Notes: generated by a model not told the origin, from the letters alone. DNA of 64,000 bases from an uncultured Alphaproteobacteria bacterium (GCA_951812775.1 OX638326.1:2241391-2305390); one strand, 5' to 3'; counted from the stretch's first letter, positions 53,043-60,337 are shown. Numbers and translations are program-made.

Positions 53043-53894
53043 TTAGTAGGTGACTGAAATCACCACGCGACGGTTCTTGGCATTCTTTGCGCCGTCTGCT
53101 GTTTTGACAGCAGGCTTTGCTTCACCCCAAGCGACCGTTCTCACGATACCTTTCTTAACACCAGCCTTGACGAGACCGGCCGCAACCGCATCAGCGCGTG
53201 CCGATGCGAGCTTGGCATTGTAAGAGTTGGATCCCGAACGGTCAGCATGACCAGCAACCGTAATGCGTGACGTCTTGCGGGGTTTGATGAACTTCCTCAC
53301 GCCTTTGATTTCCGAAGCACCATTCTTGCTGATTTTGGTGCTGTTATAATCAAAATAGACGATGAAGTTACGGGTCAGAAGCTGACGCGTCATCGGCTTC
53401 TTTTCCATCATGACAGGTTCTTCGACCGCAGCTTCAAGCAAGGCCATGGCACCATAAAATGCACTCCGGCATTTTTGGATATCCCTTTTCTGCAGGTTCT
53501 CTTCAGCTTCCTGCATCCAGCAATCGAACTGTACCTGGGCATTCGCCGCATGCTTCGGTGCCTTCTTAATACCACCAGCGGCAAAAGCAGACGTCAGACG
53601 CTTACGCGCATTCGCCAGGGGTTTCTTGTGCTTACTGACGAGTTTCCGTGCGCTCATTGCTTCGGGGCCTGTCGGCTTACCCATCGCAGCCATTTTAGCG
53701 CGATCAACAAATGATCCGGCATCACCGAAATCGTCTTCTTTATATTCAGCCCGGGCCAGTTTCACATATCCGTCCCGCAGGCCCTTTTCATAAGCCCCGC
53801 CCTTTACGCTCATCTTCGCGACTTCGTCTGTGCTACAAGCCGCAGCAAAGACACCAATCGCCAAAACGGCAAAAATGTTTTTAACGCTTCCCAT
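53043..53894 (-). CDS. OmpA-family lipoprotein (C-terminal OmpA-like peptidoglycan-binding domain)
   Basis: Lipobox LAIGVFAAAC. C-terminal NSTKISKNGASEIK...TVAGHADRSGSNSYNAKLASARADAV OmpA_C motif. 283 aa. Confidence 0.75.
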   Translation of the reverse strand: MGSVKNIFAVLAIGVFAAACSTDEVAKMSVKGGAYEKGLRDGYVKLARAEYKEDDFGDAGSFVDRAKMAAMGKPTGPEAMSARKLVSKHKKPLANARKRLTSAFAAGGIKKAPKHAANAQVQFDCWMQEAEENLQKRDIQKCRSAFYGAMALLEAAVEEPVMMEKKPMTRQLLTRNFIVYFDYNSTKISKNGASEIKGVRKFIKPRKTSRITVAGHADRSGSNSYNAKLASARADAVAAGLVKAGVKKGIVRTVAWGEAKPAVKTADGAKNAKNRRVVISVTY

Positions 53895-54018
53895 TAATTT
53901 TCTCCCATCCCAATAAATTTAACCGGGGATATTCACCCCAGCATCACTTGTGCAGTAATAAAGTATACCTAAGCAAGAAGTGTGCCAAGTTCTGTATATG
54001 TTACCAACGGGTAGTGGG

Positions 54019-54903
54019 TCAGTTTGAAATATCTTTCTTGTAAGAGCCGCGCTTCGTCGGCTTGGCCGCTTCCGCAGCTTCCAACAGTTTCACAATGTCT
54101 TTCATATCCCATAGCGTATCGGAAACGCCAGCGGCCATAGCTGGTGACATACGAAGTGTTTTGTGCATCCGAACGAAATTGTAATACATCATGTGAAACG
54201 CAACAGCGTGTGCATGGTTTTCGACCTTCTTGCTGAAACCATTTGTCAGGCGGGTAAAGCGGCGCATGTGCATCCGCATGGTTAGGTTGCTGCGCTCGAC
54301 ATAGGATGTGCTGACCAGCTTTTTGTCAGGCTCACCCTCAATCCGGTGCTTCTTGATGCCGGTGCATTCAGCGGGGCTGTAGCGACCTTTGGAACTTTCC
54401 GGCGCGTTGCCATACATCTTGACCTGTTGCGCATAGTCAACATCGGCTCCGAACGCCCCTTCAACAGCTTCAAGATATGACTTGTGACCGTCACTGGTTA
54501 GCTGGACACGATTGGCAAGGCGGCTACGCAGATCATCCATAAACCACATTGCATATTCGGCATCGCGGCCACCGACCAGATAGGATACGATCATTTTGCT
54601 ATCAGCATCAATCGCGGTCCACGTCCAAGTGTCGCCAGCATTGGCGGGAGCGGCCTTTGCGGTTTTGACGTTCTTTTGTTTGGCATAGGTGAATGACCAG
54701 ATTTCATCGACTTCGACACGGGTTGTTTTCAAGTTGCGGACATTGGCCTCGTGATAGGCCGCACATGCTTTGCCAACGTCAATCAACAGCTTTGATATTG
54801 TGTTCTTGCTGACGCCTGTCATCCGCACGATCGAGCGGATGCTGTTACCCTCGCAAAGCATGTGCAAAATTCTTGATCGTTGTTCTGATGATAGCTTGTT
54901 CAT
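54019..54903 (-). CDS. IS1-family DDE transposase (single-ORF type)
   Basis: N-terminal HTH, VEVDEIWSF...WTAIDADSK...LTSDGHKSY...ERSNLTMRMHMRRFTRLTNGFSKKVENHAHAV parallels the IS1 InsB DDE region. 294 aa. Confidence 0.7.
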   Translation of the reverse strand: MNKLSSEQRSRILHMLCEGNSIRSIVRMTGVSKNTISKLLIDVGKACAAYHEANVRNLKTTRVEVDEIWSFTYAKQKNVKTAKAAPANAGDTWTWTAIDADSKMIVSYLVGGRDAEYAMWFMDDLRSRLANRVQLTSDGHKSYLEAVEGAFGADVDYAQQVKMYGNAPESSKGRYSPAECTGIKKHRIEGEPDKKLVSTSYVERSNLTMRMHMRRFTRLTNGFSKKVENHAHAVAFHMMYYNFVRMHKTLRMSPAMAAGVSDTLWDMKDIVKLLEAAEAAKPTKRGSYKKDISN

Positions 54904-55028
54904 AGGGATTTTATAACTGACCCTTTTTACTTAGTTAAGCACTACAGTCAGTTTAGGGATATAAAATACACTAGGTGGGTGAATCAGGGTGTTGACCTTT
55001 CATTATCCGGTAATTATGGTGATTCCGC

Positions 55029-55325
55029 ATGAAAGTTGATTACGCAGACAAGCGCCTCGGCAGGATTGCAACAGACGAAGCGCACAAGCTGGGTCTACCG
55101 ATTTCGGTAATCAACAGTGCGCGGAAGAAGATCGTTCTTTTGGAGCAAGCGCCTGATGAAAGAACAATTAGAAACTGGAGATCGTTGAATTTTAAGAAAT
55201 TACGTGGCGACAGAGACAATCAAAAATCAATTCGGGTTAACGACCAATACCGCATCATTTTTACGCTCGATAATGACGAGCATCCGCCACGAATAACGAT
55301 TTTGGAGATTGATGATACACATTAG
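55029..55325 (+). CDS. higB: HigB-like toxin (RelE/ParE superfamily, plasmid-maintenance killer type)
   Basis: ...LNFKKLRGDRDNQKSIRVNDQYRIIFTLDNDEHPPRITILEIDDTH matches the HigB C-terminal signature. Toxin lies upstream of the antitoxin, the HigBA order. Confidence 0.7.
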   Translation: MKVDYADKRLGRIATDEAHKLGLPISVINSARKKIVLLEQAPDERTIRNWRSLNFKKLRGDRDNQKSIRVNDQYRIIFTLDNDEHPPRITILEIDDTH

Positions 55326-55337
55326 AATTGGGGTAAT

Positions 55338-56465
55338 ATGAGCAATGGAAATTACATGATTGAAGTGCCGCATCCCGGTGAATTTATTGCTGATGAATTG
55401 GAAGCGCGGGACTGGTCGCAGCGAGACCTTGCCTATATTTTGGGCACAGCTGAAAACAGCGTCAACATGATCGTGACTGGCAAGCGGGGCATAAGTCCTG
55501 AAATGGCCAAGGTGCTCGGTGCCGCTTTTGATGTTAGCCCTGAGTTTTTTGCGAATTTGCAGAAGGCTTATGAAATGTCACGAGCAACAGCACCGGACCC
55601 AGGCATCGCACGTCGCGCACAGTTTCAAAACGTCTATCCTATTCGCGCTATGATTCAGCGCGGATGGTTGGAAGATACGGAAGTGCCGCTTCTTGAGGGA
55701 CAGTTGATGCGGTTTTTCGGCTCCAATAGCGTTGAGAACATCCCGCATTTGGCTCACGCTGCAAAGAAAACCAATTATGACGGGACAACACCTGAACAAC
55801 TCGCTTGGCTTTATCGCGTAAAGCAAATTTGTTCTGAAATGCCCACCCCGCGCTACTCCAAAAAGGCGCTGGTAAAAGCCGTTTCGGAAGATTTGCCAGC
55901 GTTAATGGGAGACCCAGAGGGCGTCCGCCATGTTCCCCGCATCTTGAATGAATGCGGTGTTCGGTTTGCTATCGTCGAGACACTGCCAAAGGCAACCATT
56001 GATGGTGTTTGTTTTTGGGATGGAGCAAAGCCGATGGTTGGCATGACCACCCGCTTTGATCGTATCGACAATTTTTGGTTCGTCCTGTTTCACGAACTCG
56101 AACACGTTTTGAATGAAGATGGAAGGGTTGGAAAATCCATTAATATTGATGTGGATTTGAAATACGACCAGTCTGACGATCAACCAGAACAGGAGCGAAA
56201 AGCTAACCTTGCCGCTGCGAATGCGTGTGTCCCCACAAAGGACTTAGAATCTTTCTATCTTCGTAAAGCCCCTTTCATCTCGCAAAGAGACGTGATCGGC
56301 TTTGCGCGTCGAATTAACCGGCATCCCGGCATTGTTGTCGGACAGCTACAGTGGAAAATGGACCGTTATAACTGGTTGGCGAAACACAAAGTGAGCGTCC
56401 GAAAATTTATTGCTCAAAGTGCAATTACAGATGGTTGGGGCATCCCGGCACCAGTCACAATTTAA
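55338..56465 (+). CDS. HigA-like XRE-HTH antitoxin fused to an ImmA/IrrE-type Zn-metallopeptidase domain (M78, COG2856)
   Basis: N-terminal HTH (HPGEFIADELEARDWSQRDLAYILGTAENSVNMIVTGKRGISPEMA). C-terminal domain with HExxH (LFHELEHVL). 375 aa. Confidence 0.65.
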   Translation: MSNGNYMIEVPHPGEFIADELEARDWSQRDLAYILGTAENSVNMIVTGKRGISPEMAKVLGAAFDVSPEFFANLQKAYEMSRATAPDPGIARRAQFQNVYPIRAMIQRGWLEDTEVPLLEGQLMRFFGSNSVENIPHLAHAAKKTNYDGTTPEQLAWLYRVKQICSEMPTPRYSKKALVKAVSEDLPALMGDPEGVRHVPRILNECGVRFAIVETLPKATIDGVCFWDGAKPMVGMTTRFDRIDNFWFVLFHELEHVLNEDGRVGKSINIDVDLKYDQSDDQPEQERKANLAAANACVPTKDLESFYLRKAPFISQRDVIGFARRINRHPGIVVGQLQWKMDRYNWLAKHKVSVRKFIAQSAITDGWGIPAPVTI

Positions 56466-56476
56466 GGAAATAGAAA

Positions 56477-56950
56477 ATGGCATCTTACGACGAACAACTA
56501 CAAAACGTATGGCACGAATACGAAAAAGAAAAAGGATTTATCCCCGCAACATCTAAAGACGCGGTTAGATGGGGTGTCGAGCGTGGTATGATTGAAATGC
56601 CAGAAATAGACCCGTTTGACGAACTATCCAAGGATATGTCGCGGGCTTTGCGCGAAGAGTATGGCACGGATCGCTACGGTCGTCGGTATCGCAAAAACCA
56701 TGCGGGAAGGGTTACCAAGGCGGGCGTTCAGCATACTATGTGGGCAATCATGGGCAATGCTCCGCTTGACCACATGCGGAAGGCTTTCGTGCAGCGTCGG
56801 GAGCAAATTGTGGGCGACTGTGTCCAGTTAGCTACCGATGTTGAGGTTTACAACGATATGAACCCTGAACAGGAAGGCGTTCAGATTCCGTTCGATTTCA
56901 CTGATGATGTGGACGAACGTTTGCTGTTCGACGGCGGCAAGGCGGCCTAG
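56477..56950 (+). CDS. hypothetical protein with no recognised domain, co-directional with the higBA-peptidase module
   Basis: 157-aa ORF whose start overlaps the upstream region by 12 nt. Confidence 0.4.
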   Translation: MASYDEQLQNVWHEYEKEKGFIPATSKDAVRWGVERGMIEMPEIDPFDELSKDMSRALREEYGTDRYGRRYRKNHAGRVTKAGVQHTMWAIMGNAPLDHMRKAFVQRREQIVGDCVQLATDVEVYNDMNPEQEGVQIPFDFTDDVDERLLFDGGKAA

Positions 56951-57174
56951 TCTTTTTTCTTCCAACGAGCCTGTGCGGCTGTTTTGGCAATTTCAGAACG
57001 TTGCGCTGGTGTTAATGCTTTGGCACGGGCTGGACCGCCTTTCTTTCCAGCTTTAGAAGCGCGTTCCCCGGTTGCCGTTTCTTCCGCATCTTCTTCTTCA
57101 CTGGATGCAATATCCACCATCAGCTTTGCAAGCTGGTTGGGATCGCGGGGTCGTTTGGGCTTTTTGTCTGCCAT
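56947..57174 (-). CDS. small basic Lys/Ala-rich hypothetical protein (possible nucleic-acid-binding)
   Basis: MADKKPKRPRDPNQLAKLMVD...LTPAQRSEIAKTAAQARWKKKD. 76 aa. Confidence 0.35.
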   Translation of the reverse strand: MADKKPKRPRDPNQLAKLMVDIASSEEEDAEETATGERASKAGKKGGPARAKALTPAQRSEIAKTAAQARWKKKD

Positions 57175-57456
57175 AGACTCTATATAGGGTGGTATGCAGA
57201 AAATTGCAGAGCTAAATTTCAAACTGACCCACTACCCCAACGGGGGGATTTGACAGGAAATATTGTTAGATTTCAACAAATTGATTAGTTTTTTTGGAAA
57301 ATGCCCGTAAACTTCGAAAATCTGTACTAAAGAGAATTTGTCGCAGATCAAGACGGGAAACGACCGGTCCCCTCGGCACACACCAAAGACCGACCGAGGA
57401 AGCTGGTTTGGCAGCATAGATTTGGGTGCAAAACCTGATCGAGGAAGTATTAGTTA

Positions 57457-57720
57457 ATGGCCGCAGAACGTAAAAAAGAAATTCTCCTTGTTGAAGATAC
57501 CGCGCTCCTTGCCAAGAGCTATATTCAGTATCTTCGCAACGACCCCTATACGGTCACGCATGTCGCCACCGGCAAGGAAGCCCTGAAACATCTTTCTTCA
57601 AATATGCTGGACTGCATATTGCTGGATCTGGAATTGCCCGACATGACCGGGCTCGAAATCATGGAAAAGATCGGCAGCGGACGACTTCGCACAGCGCTCA
57701 GCGGAAAGACAAGCCGTTAG
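57457..57720 (+). pseudogene. response-regulator receiver-domain fragment (N-terminal ~85 aa only)
   Basis: ILLVEDTALLAKS...DCILLDLELPDMTGLEI is the first half of a REC domain. No output domain follows. Confidence 0.5.
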
Positions 57721-57730
57721 AGGCAATCAG

Positions 57731-58522
57731 GTGGATCAGAGAAATCCGAATCCCGAAACGAGTCTGGATCACGAAGGTGAAACACATGACTCCACCATTT
57801 CCAGAAAGGAACTGAAAAAAGCGGCTGAAGCGCGAAAACTCAACAGCGCAATTCAAACGATGAAAGGGCATGTGAAAAGCTTCGGGCGGAGAAATCTATC
57901 GGATGCGGAAACGAATTTGGAACATTTTCTCTCCGCCACGGGTAAGGACAGAGTGCTTACGCGCAAACAGGCTCGAAGCCATGAAGCCGTCCGGAATCTA
58001 GAAGCAGACATCAGAAAACAGCTAGAAAACAGTTTTTTTACCATCTACGCGGAAAAGGACGAAATACAATCAAAAAACGAGCGCAAACTAAATGGAATAA
58101 AGGATGGTCAGTCGATCACTCTCAACAGTCGAACTGTTTCCAACCATGGTACTGGTAGTTTTTTATTGGACCACGGGCTTGGCATGGAACCTTTCGGGCG
58201 TGATCCAAACTTCGCGCTGGGGTTTGGACAAATAAGACTCTTTTCTGATGCCTAATTCACCGCGAAGCGAACGGGCAAGCGCGTGGAAATAACAGGCACC
58301 GTCCAACACAATTGGAATGACACATATGATTTTGACGACGGACAGCCCGGTTTCGAAGAAGCCAAATTACTCCTAGACGAAGGCATGGCAAAAGAATTTT
58401 CTATACGCGCCAACTGGCGGCAAAAAGTGACTGCTACCTACCGCCTTGAAAATGGCGAATTAAAGCTCGAAGGAACAAAATGGGAGGACATAGATGATGC
58501 CGGAAAAGAAAAACCCGATTAA
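57731..58522 (+). CDS. unrecognised ORF pair (174 aa and 79 aa) in one frame separated by a single TAA at 58253..58255, within an AT-rich island
   Basis: Read directly: ...GFGQIRLFSDA*FTAKRTGKRVEITGTVQHNWNDTYDFDDGQPGF... . No recognised domain. Confidence 0.3.
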
Positions 58523-58615
58523 ACCCATAATCAATAAACTATCTTTCCAGCTGAGTTACTGCTGGAATCGCTGGCCTAAATCGACCATCACACTGGACGC
58601 TGCTTCGATCATTTT

Positions 58616-59107
58616 GTGTGTTTTTTTGTGCCGATGTGGCCACATAAACCCTTTTGCAACGGTCGTGTCTATATTGACACTGGCAAAAAGGGACATGGTA
58701 GATTTAAAACTAATGAAGAATACACAGCTTCTTACCATGTCTATCACTACCGCTTAGTACCCGGCCCTCTTTCTGATCCGTATGTGGACAAGATCGTCAA
58801 TACTCTGGACTATTGGAAGGTTTTATATATCAGAATCGGCAACATAATTCTTATCCCAGGCTATCGAACCGGTTTCTTCGACAACGCTATAGGCGTCTGG
58901 AGCATAGTAATTATAAAAGACCTCTATAAAAATCTTATGAGTGGCCGGATTACATACCCGACGCCTATGCCGCCAAAAATTCGCGAACTAATGGAATTCG
59001 ATATCAGTAAATACAAAGATTACCCTAGAGAAGTAAAAGGCATAGAATACTGCCAAACTGGTATTCCCAAGGCACTCGCCATCAAAAATTGGGGGCTGAA
59101 AGAATAG
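58616..59107 (+). CDS. hypothetical protein with no recognised domain, in an AT-rich island
   Basis: 163-aa ORF. Low-GC codon usage that differs from the flanking core genes. Confidence 0.3.
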   Translation: MCFFVPMWPHKPFCNGRVYIDTGKKGHGRFKTNEEYTASYHVYHYRLVPGPLSDPYVDKIVNTLDYWKVLYIRIGNIILIPGYRTGFFDNAIGVWSIVIIKDLYKNLMSGRITYPTPMPPKIRELMEFDISKYKDYPREVKGIEYCQTGIPKALAIKNWGLKE

Positions 59108-59125
59108 TCTGAATGACCAGGCTAG

Positions 59126-60337
59126 CTACCTTTTTAGCGCCGCGACGCCGGGCAGTTCCTTGCCTTCCAGCCATTCCAGGAATGCCCCGCCTGCTGTAGA
59201 CACGTAAGAGAAATCATCCAGCGCATCAGCGGCAGCCAACGCCGCAACGGTATCACCACCGCCGGCAACTGAACGAAGTTTACCCTCTGCGGTCAACTTC
59301 GCTGCCGCCTGCGCAACGATATTCGTACCCTTATCAAAGGGCCGGATTTCAAACGCGCCAAGCGGGCCGTTCCACAGCACTGTTTTGCAATCGGCGAGGC
59401 TATCAGCCAGCGCCTGCGCTGTTCCTTCCCCGACATCAAGGATCATGGTATCAGCGCGCACTGCTGCGATCGGCACTGTTTCACATGGCGCCCCAGCTTC
59501 AAATTTTTCAGAAATTACAACATCACGGGGCAGAACAACTTCGCAGCCTGCCGCGTCAGCGCTCGCCATCACGGCACGTGCCGTATCCGCCATATCATTT
59601 TCGCACAGGGAAGCGCCGACATCCGTACCAAGCGCATACAGGAACGTATTTGCCATCGCGCCACCGATAACAAGCCGATCAATCTTTTCAACCATATTGC
59701 TCAGAACATCCAGTTTGGTCGACACTTTTGCACCGCCGACCACTGCCAAAACCGGACGCTCTGGATCCCCAAGCGCTACTTCCAGCGCTTCGAGCTCTGC
59801 CTGCATGGATCGGCCCGCCGCCGCCGCCAATACATGCGCAATACCTGCTGTCGACGCGTGCGCCCGATGTGCCGCTGAAAAAGCATCATTGACGTAGGCA
59901 TCCCCGAGCATTGCGAGTGCTTTGATGAAAGCATCATCATTGGCTTCTTCACCAGCATGAAAACGCAAATTTTCGAGCAGTGCGACCCCGCCATTGGGCA
60001 GAGCCTCGATCGCCGCTTCCGATGCGGCACCGATACAAGCATCGACGAATACCACCTCACGCCCACCCAGCGCGGCGCTGAACGGCTCGACAAGCGGTTT
60101 AAGCGACATTTCCGGCACCACCTGACCCTTAGGCCTGTCGAAATGAGACATCACCACGACTTTGCAGCCGCGGTCCGCGAGCTCGAGGACTGTAGGAGCC
60201 AGCCGCTCAATACGGGTGGCCTCTGTCACGATGCCATCCTGCATCGGGACATTGAGATCACCGCGCACCAGAACACGTGTGCCCGCTGCCTGCTCGTTCA
60301 AAGCAGGCAGGGTATCAAGCGTTTCAAATCGCGCCAT
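59126..60337 (-). CDS. pgk: phosphoglycerate kinase
   Basis: [10 protein letters not shown] and hinge motifs typical of Pgk. 403 aa. Confidence 0.9.

Follow-up and report, generated by a model that had tools for sequence, protein, structure and literature searches.

The stretch of DNA analysed here, hereafter the window, comprises 64,000 nucleotides (nt) from an uncultured Alphaproteobacteria bacterium (GCA_951812775.1 OX638326.1:2241391-2305390) and contains, at positions 54010-57236, a 3,227-bp element in which the gene for an IS1-type insertion sequence (IS) transposase and four further genes are enclosed by perfect inverted repeats. The transposase gene is accompanied by genes for a HigB-like toxin, a HigA-type helix-turn-helix (HTH) protein fused to an M78 peptidase (HTH-M78), a conserved 157-aa protein (orf157) and a small 75-aa protein encoded on the minus strand (orf75), together with one copy of a 58-nt repeat (Table 1), and this is the content that a first-pass annotation of the window had listed for the interval. 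The element is intergenic; its neighbours are an OmpA-family gene on one side (minus strand, 53043-53894) and, on the other, a gene for a response regulator (57457-57720) that is truncated at 87 aa. Its G+C content is 48.7%, compared with 53.0% for the window.

A 22-mer, GGGTAGTGGGTCAGTTTGAAAT, occurs exactly twice in the window when up to three mismatches are allowed, once on each strand (plus, 54009-54030; minus, 57216-57237), and 100 dinucleotide-preserving shuffles gave no chance match. The pair is the 22-bp perfect inverted repeat reported in the first-pass annotation, whose coordinates (54011-54032 and 57220-57241) were too high by two and four bases, respectively. The conserved terminal inverted repeat is 21 bp long, as the 22nd matching base is part of a flanking direct repeat and lies outside the end; the functional element end is this 21-bp IS1-type repeat with the tip GGTAGTG. 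The copy at the transposase end overlaps the stop codon of the transposase gene, as had also been noted.

Table 1 Features of the element and the associated repeats, in window coordinates
Feature	Position	Strand	Basis or remark
Outer 58-nt copy, outside the element	52148-52205	-	Insertion inside a long minus-strand open reading frame (ORF)
Left flanking direct repeat CCAACG (putative target-site duplication)	54004-54009		Read directly; identical to 57237-57242
IRR, terminal inverted repeat at the transposase 3′ end, GGTAGTGGGTCAGTTTGAAAT	54010-54030	+	Overlaps the transposase stop codon
Single-ORF IS1-family DDE transposase, 294 aa, N-terminal HTH	54019-54903	-	Pfam
Divergent promoter region	54904-55028		Family consensus and consensus scan
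Transposase promoter	-35 TTAACT 54938-54933; -10 TATAAA 54915-54910	-	ATG 6 nt after the -10, leaderless-type
Sites like the inner half of the terminal repeat	ACTGACCC 54916-54923; GTCAGTTT 54947-54954		Family consensus
Inner 58-nt copy	54948-55005	+	Native IS sequence, in place in the metagenome element L081 at ~86%
higB promoter, predicted	TTGACC 54992-54997; TATGGT 55015-55020	+	Consensus scan
higB, HigB/RelE-like toxin, 98 aa, first cargo gene	55029-55325	+	Pfam HigB-like_toxin 36.8 bits (cut-off 27)
HTH-M78, HigA-type Xre HTH fused to M78 (ImmA/IrrE) metallopeptidase, 375 aa	55338-56465	+	Pfam HTH_3, Peptidase_M78
orf157, third cargo gene, conserved 157-aa protein	56477-56950	+	Homologues; co-occurs with the M78 gene
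orf75, small basic protein, 75 aa	56947-57174	-	Same strand as the transposase, adjoins the left repeat
IRL, terminal inverted repeat far from the transposase	57216-57236	-	Repeat search and junction reading
Right flanking direct repeat CCAACG, then GGGGG	57237-57242		Junction reading

Related elements, target duplications and an empty site

A census of related loci was assembled from 80 genome loci (a scan of one genome per species), two metagenome loci and the window; the transposases of the 80 loci, mostly from Alphaproteobacteria, were 71-92% identical, and those of the 71 related complete elements 71-93%. Elements were found in Sphingomonadales, Hyphomicrobiales, Rhodospirillales and other groups, each at a different site, and translated searches located the other four window proteins in the same order and orientation 5′ of the transposase in dozens of loci. 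Every locus with enough flanking sequence had exactly one 21-mer (up to four mismatches) upstream of the transposase, at a distance of 2-2.5 kb in related elements, and exactly one downstream, in inverted orientation. In 65 of 69 complete elements the whole unit was surrounded by a perfect direct repeat of 8 bp, and these duplications all differed in sequence; one of the remaining four elements had 7 bp, the window copy had 6 bp, and in two the duplication was absent or mismatched. Element length ranged from 1,723 to 6,242 bp (71 complete elements), and a copy of about 1 kb with both repeats beside the transposase, which the first-pass annotation had named as the observation that would contradict a carrier architecture, did not occur among them. 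Even the shortest element has orf75, and the transposase gene and orf75 are the two universal genes, encoded on the same strand in 71 of 71 elements. Two closer relatives are the metagenome elements L081 and L082, with nucleotide identities of 90.5% (across the length in common) and 81%, respectively; L081 is the closest. They have the same gene order as the window copy, each with an 8-bp duplication at an unrelated site.

A 3,370-bp family member on the Mesorhizobium loti plasmid CP050295.1, flanked by CGCTGGTG, has no counterpart at the corresponding position of two further plasmids, NZ_CP050299.1 and NZ_CP080528.1 (locus pair L105 and L106). The joined CP050295.1 flanks match the M. huakuii and Mesorhizobium sp. 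AR07 plasmids without interruption (98.3% and 97.3%, respectively), and the junction at the empty site reads ...GATCGCGCTGGTAGACTGC..., with a single copy of the target. The 8-bp duplications and the Mesorhizobium empty site show that in this family the whole unit moves, cargo included, and inserts with an 8-bp target duplication. With repeats on both sides in 71 relatives as well, the geometry proposed in the first-pass annotation, in which cargo lies between the transposase and the distal repeat, is supported, and the window interval 54010-57236 is very probably one transposable unit, a transporter-IS (tIS) of the IS1 family. The family is widespread among Alphaproteobacteria and apparently undescribed, and all of its members have cargo of this kind.

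Some relatives showed additional features. The element with the closest transposase (L001, 3520-6894; 92% identity) has no target duplication, and its flanks are partly inverted copies (CAAAGATTC / reverse complement CACAGAT), as might result if copies had later recombined or an inversion had taken place. Eight relatives (L095-L102) are located on IMG/VR contigs classed as viral, among them L095, which is 3,227 bp long, has all three cargo genes and is flanked by the duplication GATGGTAC, and the family therefore inserts into, or rides in, prophage-like DNA too. On the Acidiphilium plasmid NZ_CP041717.1 (L084, 5383-6221), genes for a RES-domain toxin and a MbcA/ParS/Xre antitoxin overlap the 3′ end of the transposase gene, just outside the right repeat, a further toxin-antitoxin association on the opposite side of the element.

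The transposase, its promoter region and orf75

The window transposase matched Pfam PF03400 (DDE_Tnp_IS1) with 34.9 bits (cut-off 24.1) and HTH_38 with 30.7, and transpos_IS1 (NF033558) was its best-scoring NCBIfam family (2e-17). Residues D66, D138 and E203 are invariant among the 71 relatives. A DDE_Tnp_IS1 match is precomputed on nearly all of the 120 top homologues, and public data hold thousands of homologues, nearly all unlabelled or named "IS1 family transposase"; in one record (L085) the transposase is named only 'helix-turn-helix domain-containing protein'. The comparison with IS1 used an IS1A copy on a Salmonella plasmid, verified at 100% against annotated records. This IS1A copy has the ends GGTGATG and GGTAATG, a 9-bp duplication and the insB stop codon inside the right repeat. 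The window element resembles it in having a DDE transposase with a DDE_Tnp_IS1 match and a conserved E-motif region (38% identity to InsB over 40 residues), terminal repeats of about 21-23 bp starting GGT-R-R-TG (the tip GGTAGTG fits the IS1-type GGnnnTG), a target duplication (8 bp in 65 of 69 elements of the family, with 6 bp beside the window copy), a transposase stop codon inside the right repeat (9 nt from the repeat tip in 29 elements, the window copy included) and a small gene directly inside the left repeat. It differs in that the transposase is one uninterrupted 294-aa frame with an HTH, whereas IS1 has insA and insB joined by a programmed -1 frameshift; in that orf75 shows no relationship to InsA and lacks a zinc finger; and in that 0.8-5 kb of cargo parts orf75 from the transposase, which has its own internal promoter. 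Judged by the repeat tips, the duplication in the family, the stop codon inside the right repeat and the E-motif alignment, the element belongs to the IS1 family as a divergent single-ORF branch. Two results count against this placement: the transposase score is under the NCBIfam IS1 cut-off (63.8 bits, with a cut-off of 100), and the pairwise alignment with IS1 InsB is confined to the area around the E motif. Single-ORF IS1 subgroups are also recognised by ISfinder, whose IS1 table lists an ISMhu11 subgroup of up to 4.6 kb, perhaps with cargo carriers, and the statement in the first-pass annotation that IS1 is not known for such an architecture may therefore be too strong; a literature search outside the Siguier/Chandler reviews returned nothing relevant on ISMhu11, the repeat sequence or IS1 transporter-IS.

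The 130 nt located 5′ of the transposase gene are conserved in nearly all 71 elements regardless of cargo, with the consensus AAACTGACC-(3 nt)-ATGC-TTGACT-17 nt-TATnnA-5 to 8 nt-ATG; here AAACTGACC represents the terminal repeat's inner half, and the -10 is often overlapped by a further copy in inverted orientation. The -35 of the window copy is TTAACT, compared with TTGACT in the family. Since the ATG follows the -10 by 5-8 nt and there is no room for a leader, a leaderless transcript is implied, and the promoter consensus with its repeat-like sites points to autoregulation by transposase binding and to leaderless translation. In the proposed mechanism, the transposase would bind the terminal repeats via its N-terminal HTH and cut at the GG tips like IS1, and would repress its own leaderless-type promoter, which is flanked by two copies of the repeat inner half. 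The internal repeat-like site at the transposase start was also considered as a fossil left end, and was rejected due to its lack of a tip and its conservation as a promoter feature.

The open frame of orf75 extends over 56947-57222 on the minus strand (91 aa), and its real start is probably the ATG at 57174. In the ORF census, orf75 was present in 71 of 71 elements regardless of cargo and was the sole non-transposase gene of which this is true, with a constant end and strand; the distance between its start and the tip of the repeat is 52-922 nt, with a median of 104. Its homologues number at least 1,248, all hypothetical and none with a Pfam domain. Two motifs in orf75 are strongly conserved, PKRPRDPNQLAKLxVDIAxGE and GGxARAxxLTPxQRSEIAxxAAxARWKK. 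Divergence of orf75 correlates with that of the transposase with a Spearman coefficient of 0.50, compared with 0.18 for cargo and transposase. Because orf75 is universal, has a fixed position and co-diverges better with the transposase, it was tentatively assigned to the transposition module, in which it would be an accessory or regulatory DNA-binding factor, a role with about even chances on these comparisons. A serious though not favoured possibility is that orf75 is a mere passenger (it might be nucleoid-associated or act against defence systems) and that the element needs only the transposase and the repeats. In keeping with a passenger, orf75 has no similarity to IS1 InsA or any transposition protein and no domain match, its homologue at L105 3075-3284 (CP050295.1) was named 'histone H1' by GenBank annotators, and its C-terminal motif, as GGxARAxxLTPxxRSEIAxxAAxARW (window 56950-57040), is a short module that recurs at the N-terminus of a P63C-domain cargo protein (L063) and in a phage protein family (PHROG 2384; E 8e-6). 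The absence of a recognisable domain also tells against a role in transposition, as does a predicted structure of three helices with a predicted local distance difference test (pLDDT) score of 68 and a predicted template modelling (pTM) score of 0.26, too poor for structure searching. A passenger would, however, fit less well with presence in every element, with an end and strand that stay constant while the genes between orf75 and the transposase change, and with a divergence that follows the transposase better than that of the cargo does.

The cargo genes and their exchange

The first two cargo genes of the window copy have the features of a type II HigBA system, in which a HigB/RelE-fold toxin gene comes first and an Xre-HTH HigA gene next, here with an extra M78 domain in the antitoxin-like protein. 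HigB matched the PHROG annotation 'toxin of TA system' (4.5e-11), and the gene is syntenic in 28 of 71 elements. HTH-M78 matched TIGR02607 (antidote_HigA) with 54.3 bits (cut-off 47.7), its HELEH is encoded at 56091-56105, and the HExxH is kept in 43 of 43 family members; residues 4-359 matched the PADLOC model PD-Lambda-2_B (PDLC03982) with an E of 4.5e-44 over model positions 51-397 of 402. The third gene, orf157, occurs alongside the M78 gene in 43 of 71 elements and belongs to a family of 665 or more homologues, each of them labelled 'hypothetical'. Sequence searches of Pfam, NCBIfam, PADLOC and the PDB gave no match for orf157, and a Foldseek search of the PDB with its AlphaFold model (pLDDT 75, pTM 0.39) returned nothing below E = 2.6. 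A Paraburkholderia plasmid has genes for a RelE-like protein, a HigA-M78 protein and an orf157 homologue (hhalign E 4e-39), and no IS1 transposase, in a defence island, with a type I restriction gene on one side and an Abi gene on the other; going by this gene arrangement, the HigB, HTH-M78 and orf157 trio is an independent module.

PD-lambda-2, a system obtained from a functional screen, consists of three genes, of which the first encodes a HigB-like protein, the second a fusion of a HigA-HTH with a peptidase and the third a small protein described as P4-antitoxin-related; it defends by abortive infection, with B alone being toxic, A rescuing and C needed for defence (Vassallo et al. 2022, PMC9519451). 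The window cargo agrees with it in gene order and domains, and its second protein matches the B model over the full length. The other two components are points against membership of this system: 42 orf157 family members gave no match to PD-Lambda-2_C at E <= 0.1, and HigB gave no match to PADLOC PD-Lambda-2_A at E <= 0.01. As orf157 and HigB miss the C and A models, the cargo is named PD-lambda-2-like and not a member of the system. On balance, the cargo may well give phage defence, and it would pay for retention of the element through phage defence, post-segregational addiction, or both. In 15 elements (L010, L011, L014, L020, L025, L050-L052, L056, L062, L065-L067, L071 and L075), HTH-M78 and orf157 are present without a HigB gene; compared with E. 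coli PD-lambda-2, in which the HTH-peptidase is toxic and the HigB-like A rescues, these hint at a different toxin/antitoxin logic.

The slot between orf75 and the transposase gene varies in content. Apart from the 43 elements with orf157 and HTH-M78 (28 with HigB, 15 without), 28 elements have other Pfam-recognised cargo, comprising Fic/DOC, GmrSD, nSTAND1 NTPase, SDH-type ClpP-like proteases, HipA_2 with DUF3037, P63C, HARE-HTH and another HTH-M78, and some elements have genes 3′ of the transposase (NYN, Abi_2/HEPN, a 967-aa Eco57I-type methylase, a ParA-like ATPase, a NotI-like nuclease and an FRG protein). Mean identity was 76% for the transposase, 47% for HTH-M78 and 34% for orf157. Divergence of the transposase correlated with that of HTH-M78 and orf157 with Spearman coefficients of 0.18 and 0.13, respectively, whereas the two cargo proteins correlated with each other at 0.64, and for only 33 of the 71 elements did the nearest neighbour by transposase share the cargo class. 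Between L001 and the window copy, the transposases are 92% identical, HigB 51% and M78 43%. These comparisons show that cargo has been exchanged between closely related transposase backbones, and the exchangeable slot appears to be enriched in defence and toxin-antitoxin genes.

Mobility of the window copy, its surroundings and known elements

The five ORFs and both repeats of the window copy are intact, and it is therefore probably still mobilisable; that it is mobile at present is, from these features, rather likely. Three observations weigh against this. Self-comparison of the window and database searches found no second copy, empty site or near-identical element; an empty site, proposed as a check in the first-pass annotation, was found for the Mesorhizobium family member and not for the window copy. 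One transposase (P0064), identical on 21 contigs, represents one insertion site in one species, vertically inherited. The flanking duplication, lastly, is 6 bp (CCAACG) and not the 8 bp of relatives; direct repeats just outside the ends, for which the first-pass annotation had proposed a search, are present on both sides, at less than the 8-9 bp envisaged. Loss of two G from the G3 run at 54009-54011 could account for the difference, as the repeat would then have been CCAACGGG, with 8 bp; on the right, the flank is CCAACGGGGGG. A homopolymer slip or an assembly error is a plausible source of the shorter repeat. Metagenome pattern scans found neither the reconstructed empty site nor the left-end junction of the element lineage, and comparison of 53900-57400 with the window returned only the 21/22-bp repeat and the 58-nt stretch, with no second IS copy and so no compound transposon.

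It is possible, though doubtful, that the window copy is a genuine transporter-IS now fixed and immobile, kept for its cargo, with transposition functions idle or decaying. The single copy in the window, the atypical 6-bp flanking repeat, the occurrence of relatives as single vertically inherited insertions across many samples and the degenerate -35 are in agreement with this. Perfect repeats at both ends, a full-length transposase with the invariant D, D and E, and intact orf75 and cargo ORFs are not, and the 6-bp flank may stem from the loss of two G or from the assembly. It is highly improbable that the locus is an ordinary IS1-like IS of about 0.95 kb with a decayed left repeat, lying 2.2 kb from the solo repeat of another copy and with toxin-antitoxin genes that are host DNA: a degenerate repeat-like sequence, GGGTCAGTTATAAAAT (minus strand), does lie just upstream of the transposase start and could pass for a decayed left end. 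This internal site, however, is the inner half only, has no GGTAGTG tip and belongs to the promoter that all 71 elements conserve; no relative lacks the distal repeat past the cargo, and 65 of 69 have 8-bp duplications beyond it; the Mesorhizobium empty site loses the whole unit, and no member among the 71 is about 1 kb long. A one-off mobilisation, in which a single IS took adjacent DNA via a fortuitous repeat-like sequence in a TMo/ISCR-like capture, can be put aside with equal firmness, as the architecture, the 21-bp repeat at both ends and orf75 are common to 71 elements at different sites and there is no second transposase copy in the window, although a published account states in general terms that IS elements can mobilise neighbouring DNA through surrogate ends (PMC9330008).

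Interleaved with the terminal repeats is a second inverted-repeat pair, given as 55 bp in the first-pass annotation and taken there as the record of an earlier rearrangement. The pair is real but 58 nt long (57 of 58 positions complementary), and the order A, B, A′, B′ (52148-52205, 54010-54030, 54948-55005, 57216-57236) is right. The inner copy begins at the internal GTCAGTTT site, ends at the -35 of the promoter of higB, and is native to the IS lineage since L081 has it in place with about 86% identity. Deleting exactly the outer copy restores a reading frame (...FAEFVEL/SPQTTDGTEG..., with the slash at the deletion point) for about 120 further codons, the insert provides the stop codon of a 224-aa ORF, and no direct repeat was found at its borders. 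The most fitting explanation of the outer copy is that nearby IS DNA served as template for a short insertion in a repair or template-switch type event, and the interleaving is therefore incidental to the transposon structure: it reflects a separate small insertion in another ORF, without target duplication, and not a rearrangement of the element. The pair was also considered as the ends of a second element, and was rejected in view of the native origin of the inner copy, the position of the outer copy as an insertion within an ORF and the absence of a duplication. The same minus-strand frame (51600-52863) needs a second frameshift near 51870 (about 51860-51880) to reach an RTX calcium-binding repeat protein (49546-51594, with 11 HemolysinCabind stretches; region 47512-52863), and this large adhesin-like gene is either a pseudogene or affected by assembly indels.

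To the right of the element, 57237-59107 has a G+C content of 45.5%, compared with 53% for the window, and contains the truncated response-regulator receiver domain and three orphan ORFs without a Pfam match; it may be the remains of another acquired element. A Tara contig found via Pgk (L086), the closest relative available, was examined as an empty site and rejected, being syntenic only over tkt-pgk and diverging at window position 59136. Its nucleotide identity to the window is 77% across tkt-gap-pgk, synteny ends exactly at the pgk end, and all window sequence below 59136, the element included, is lineage-specific. No RNA family was found by Rfam in 51500-59200.

In TnCentral, a tIS is an IS-like element with one transposase and passenger genes inside the terminal repeats; tIS are described as rare and are limited in the curators' text to the IS1595 and IS66 families, and an IS6-family review gives a single further case. 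The window element, with one transposase and 2.2 kb of other genes inside its repeats, shares this plan. It differs from IS1595 tIS in that its transposase matches IS1 profiles and not IS1595 ones and has no Zn-ribbon, and from both IS1595 and IS66 tIS in that cargo is obligatory clade-wide and occupies a defined slot beside a universal small gene. Siguier and colleagues are said to have placed IS1595, in 2009, as the family closest to IS1, also with 8-bp duplications. Tn7-like transposons, reportedly described with variable defence cargo by Benler and colleagues in 2021, likewise combine a conserved transposition backbone with variable cargo rich in defence, toxin-antitoxin and restriction genes, but are large, multi-protein (TnsABC and a targeting factor) and site-specific, whereas the present elements are 2-6 kb long with one transposase and no evident target specificity (their duplications being diverse). 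In Tn3-family elements, toxin-antitoxin pairs have been proposed to be integrated with the transposition module through shared promoters (cited in PMC9330008), and in the window, too, toxin-antitoxin genes adjoin the transposition module; Tn3 elements, however, have a transposase of about 1000 aa, a resolvase and res site, 38-bp repeats and 5-bp duplications, in contrast to the 294-aa IS1-type enzyme and the three-part module with a peptidase fusion found here.

The transporter-IS as a kind is already known, and what appears to be new is an IS1-type clade with obligatory extra genes, a universal small gene and an exchangeable slot. The clade has thousands of transposase homologues and was never met without extra genes. 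Annotation pipelines label the transposase only, at times as a helix-turn-helix protein, and the units are unrecognised in the public records examined. We tentatively suggest, as a possibility less likely than not, that the element may be the type example of an unrecognised IS1 subgroup acting as a dedicated carrier of defence/addiction cassettes, with a new, obligatory 75-aa co-factor on the left, a self-repressed leaderless transposase on the right and a recombination-prone slot in which PD-lambda-2-like, Fic, GmrSD, STAND, HipA, NYN and Abi modules are swapped among alphaproteobacteria. If the family is what it seems to be, anti-phage and toxin-antitoxin modules would regularly travel on the smallest class of transposons, the combination of 21-bp repeat, orf75, slot and transposase would provide a simple, well-bounded marker for mining defence genes, and the orf75 family, with its at least 1,248 'hypothetical' members, would be a candidate transposition factor.

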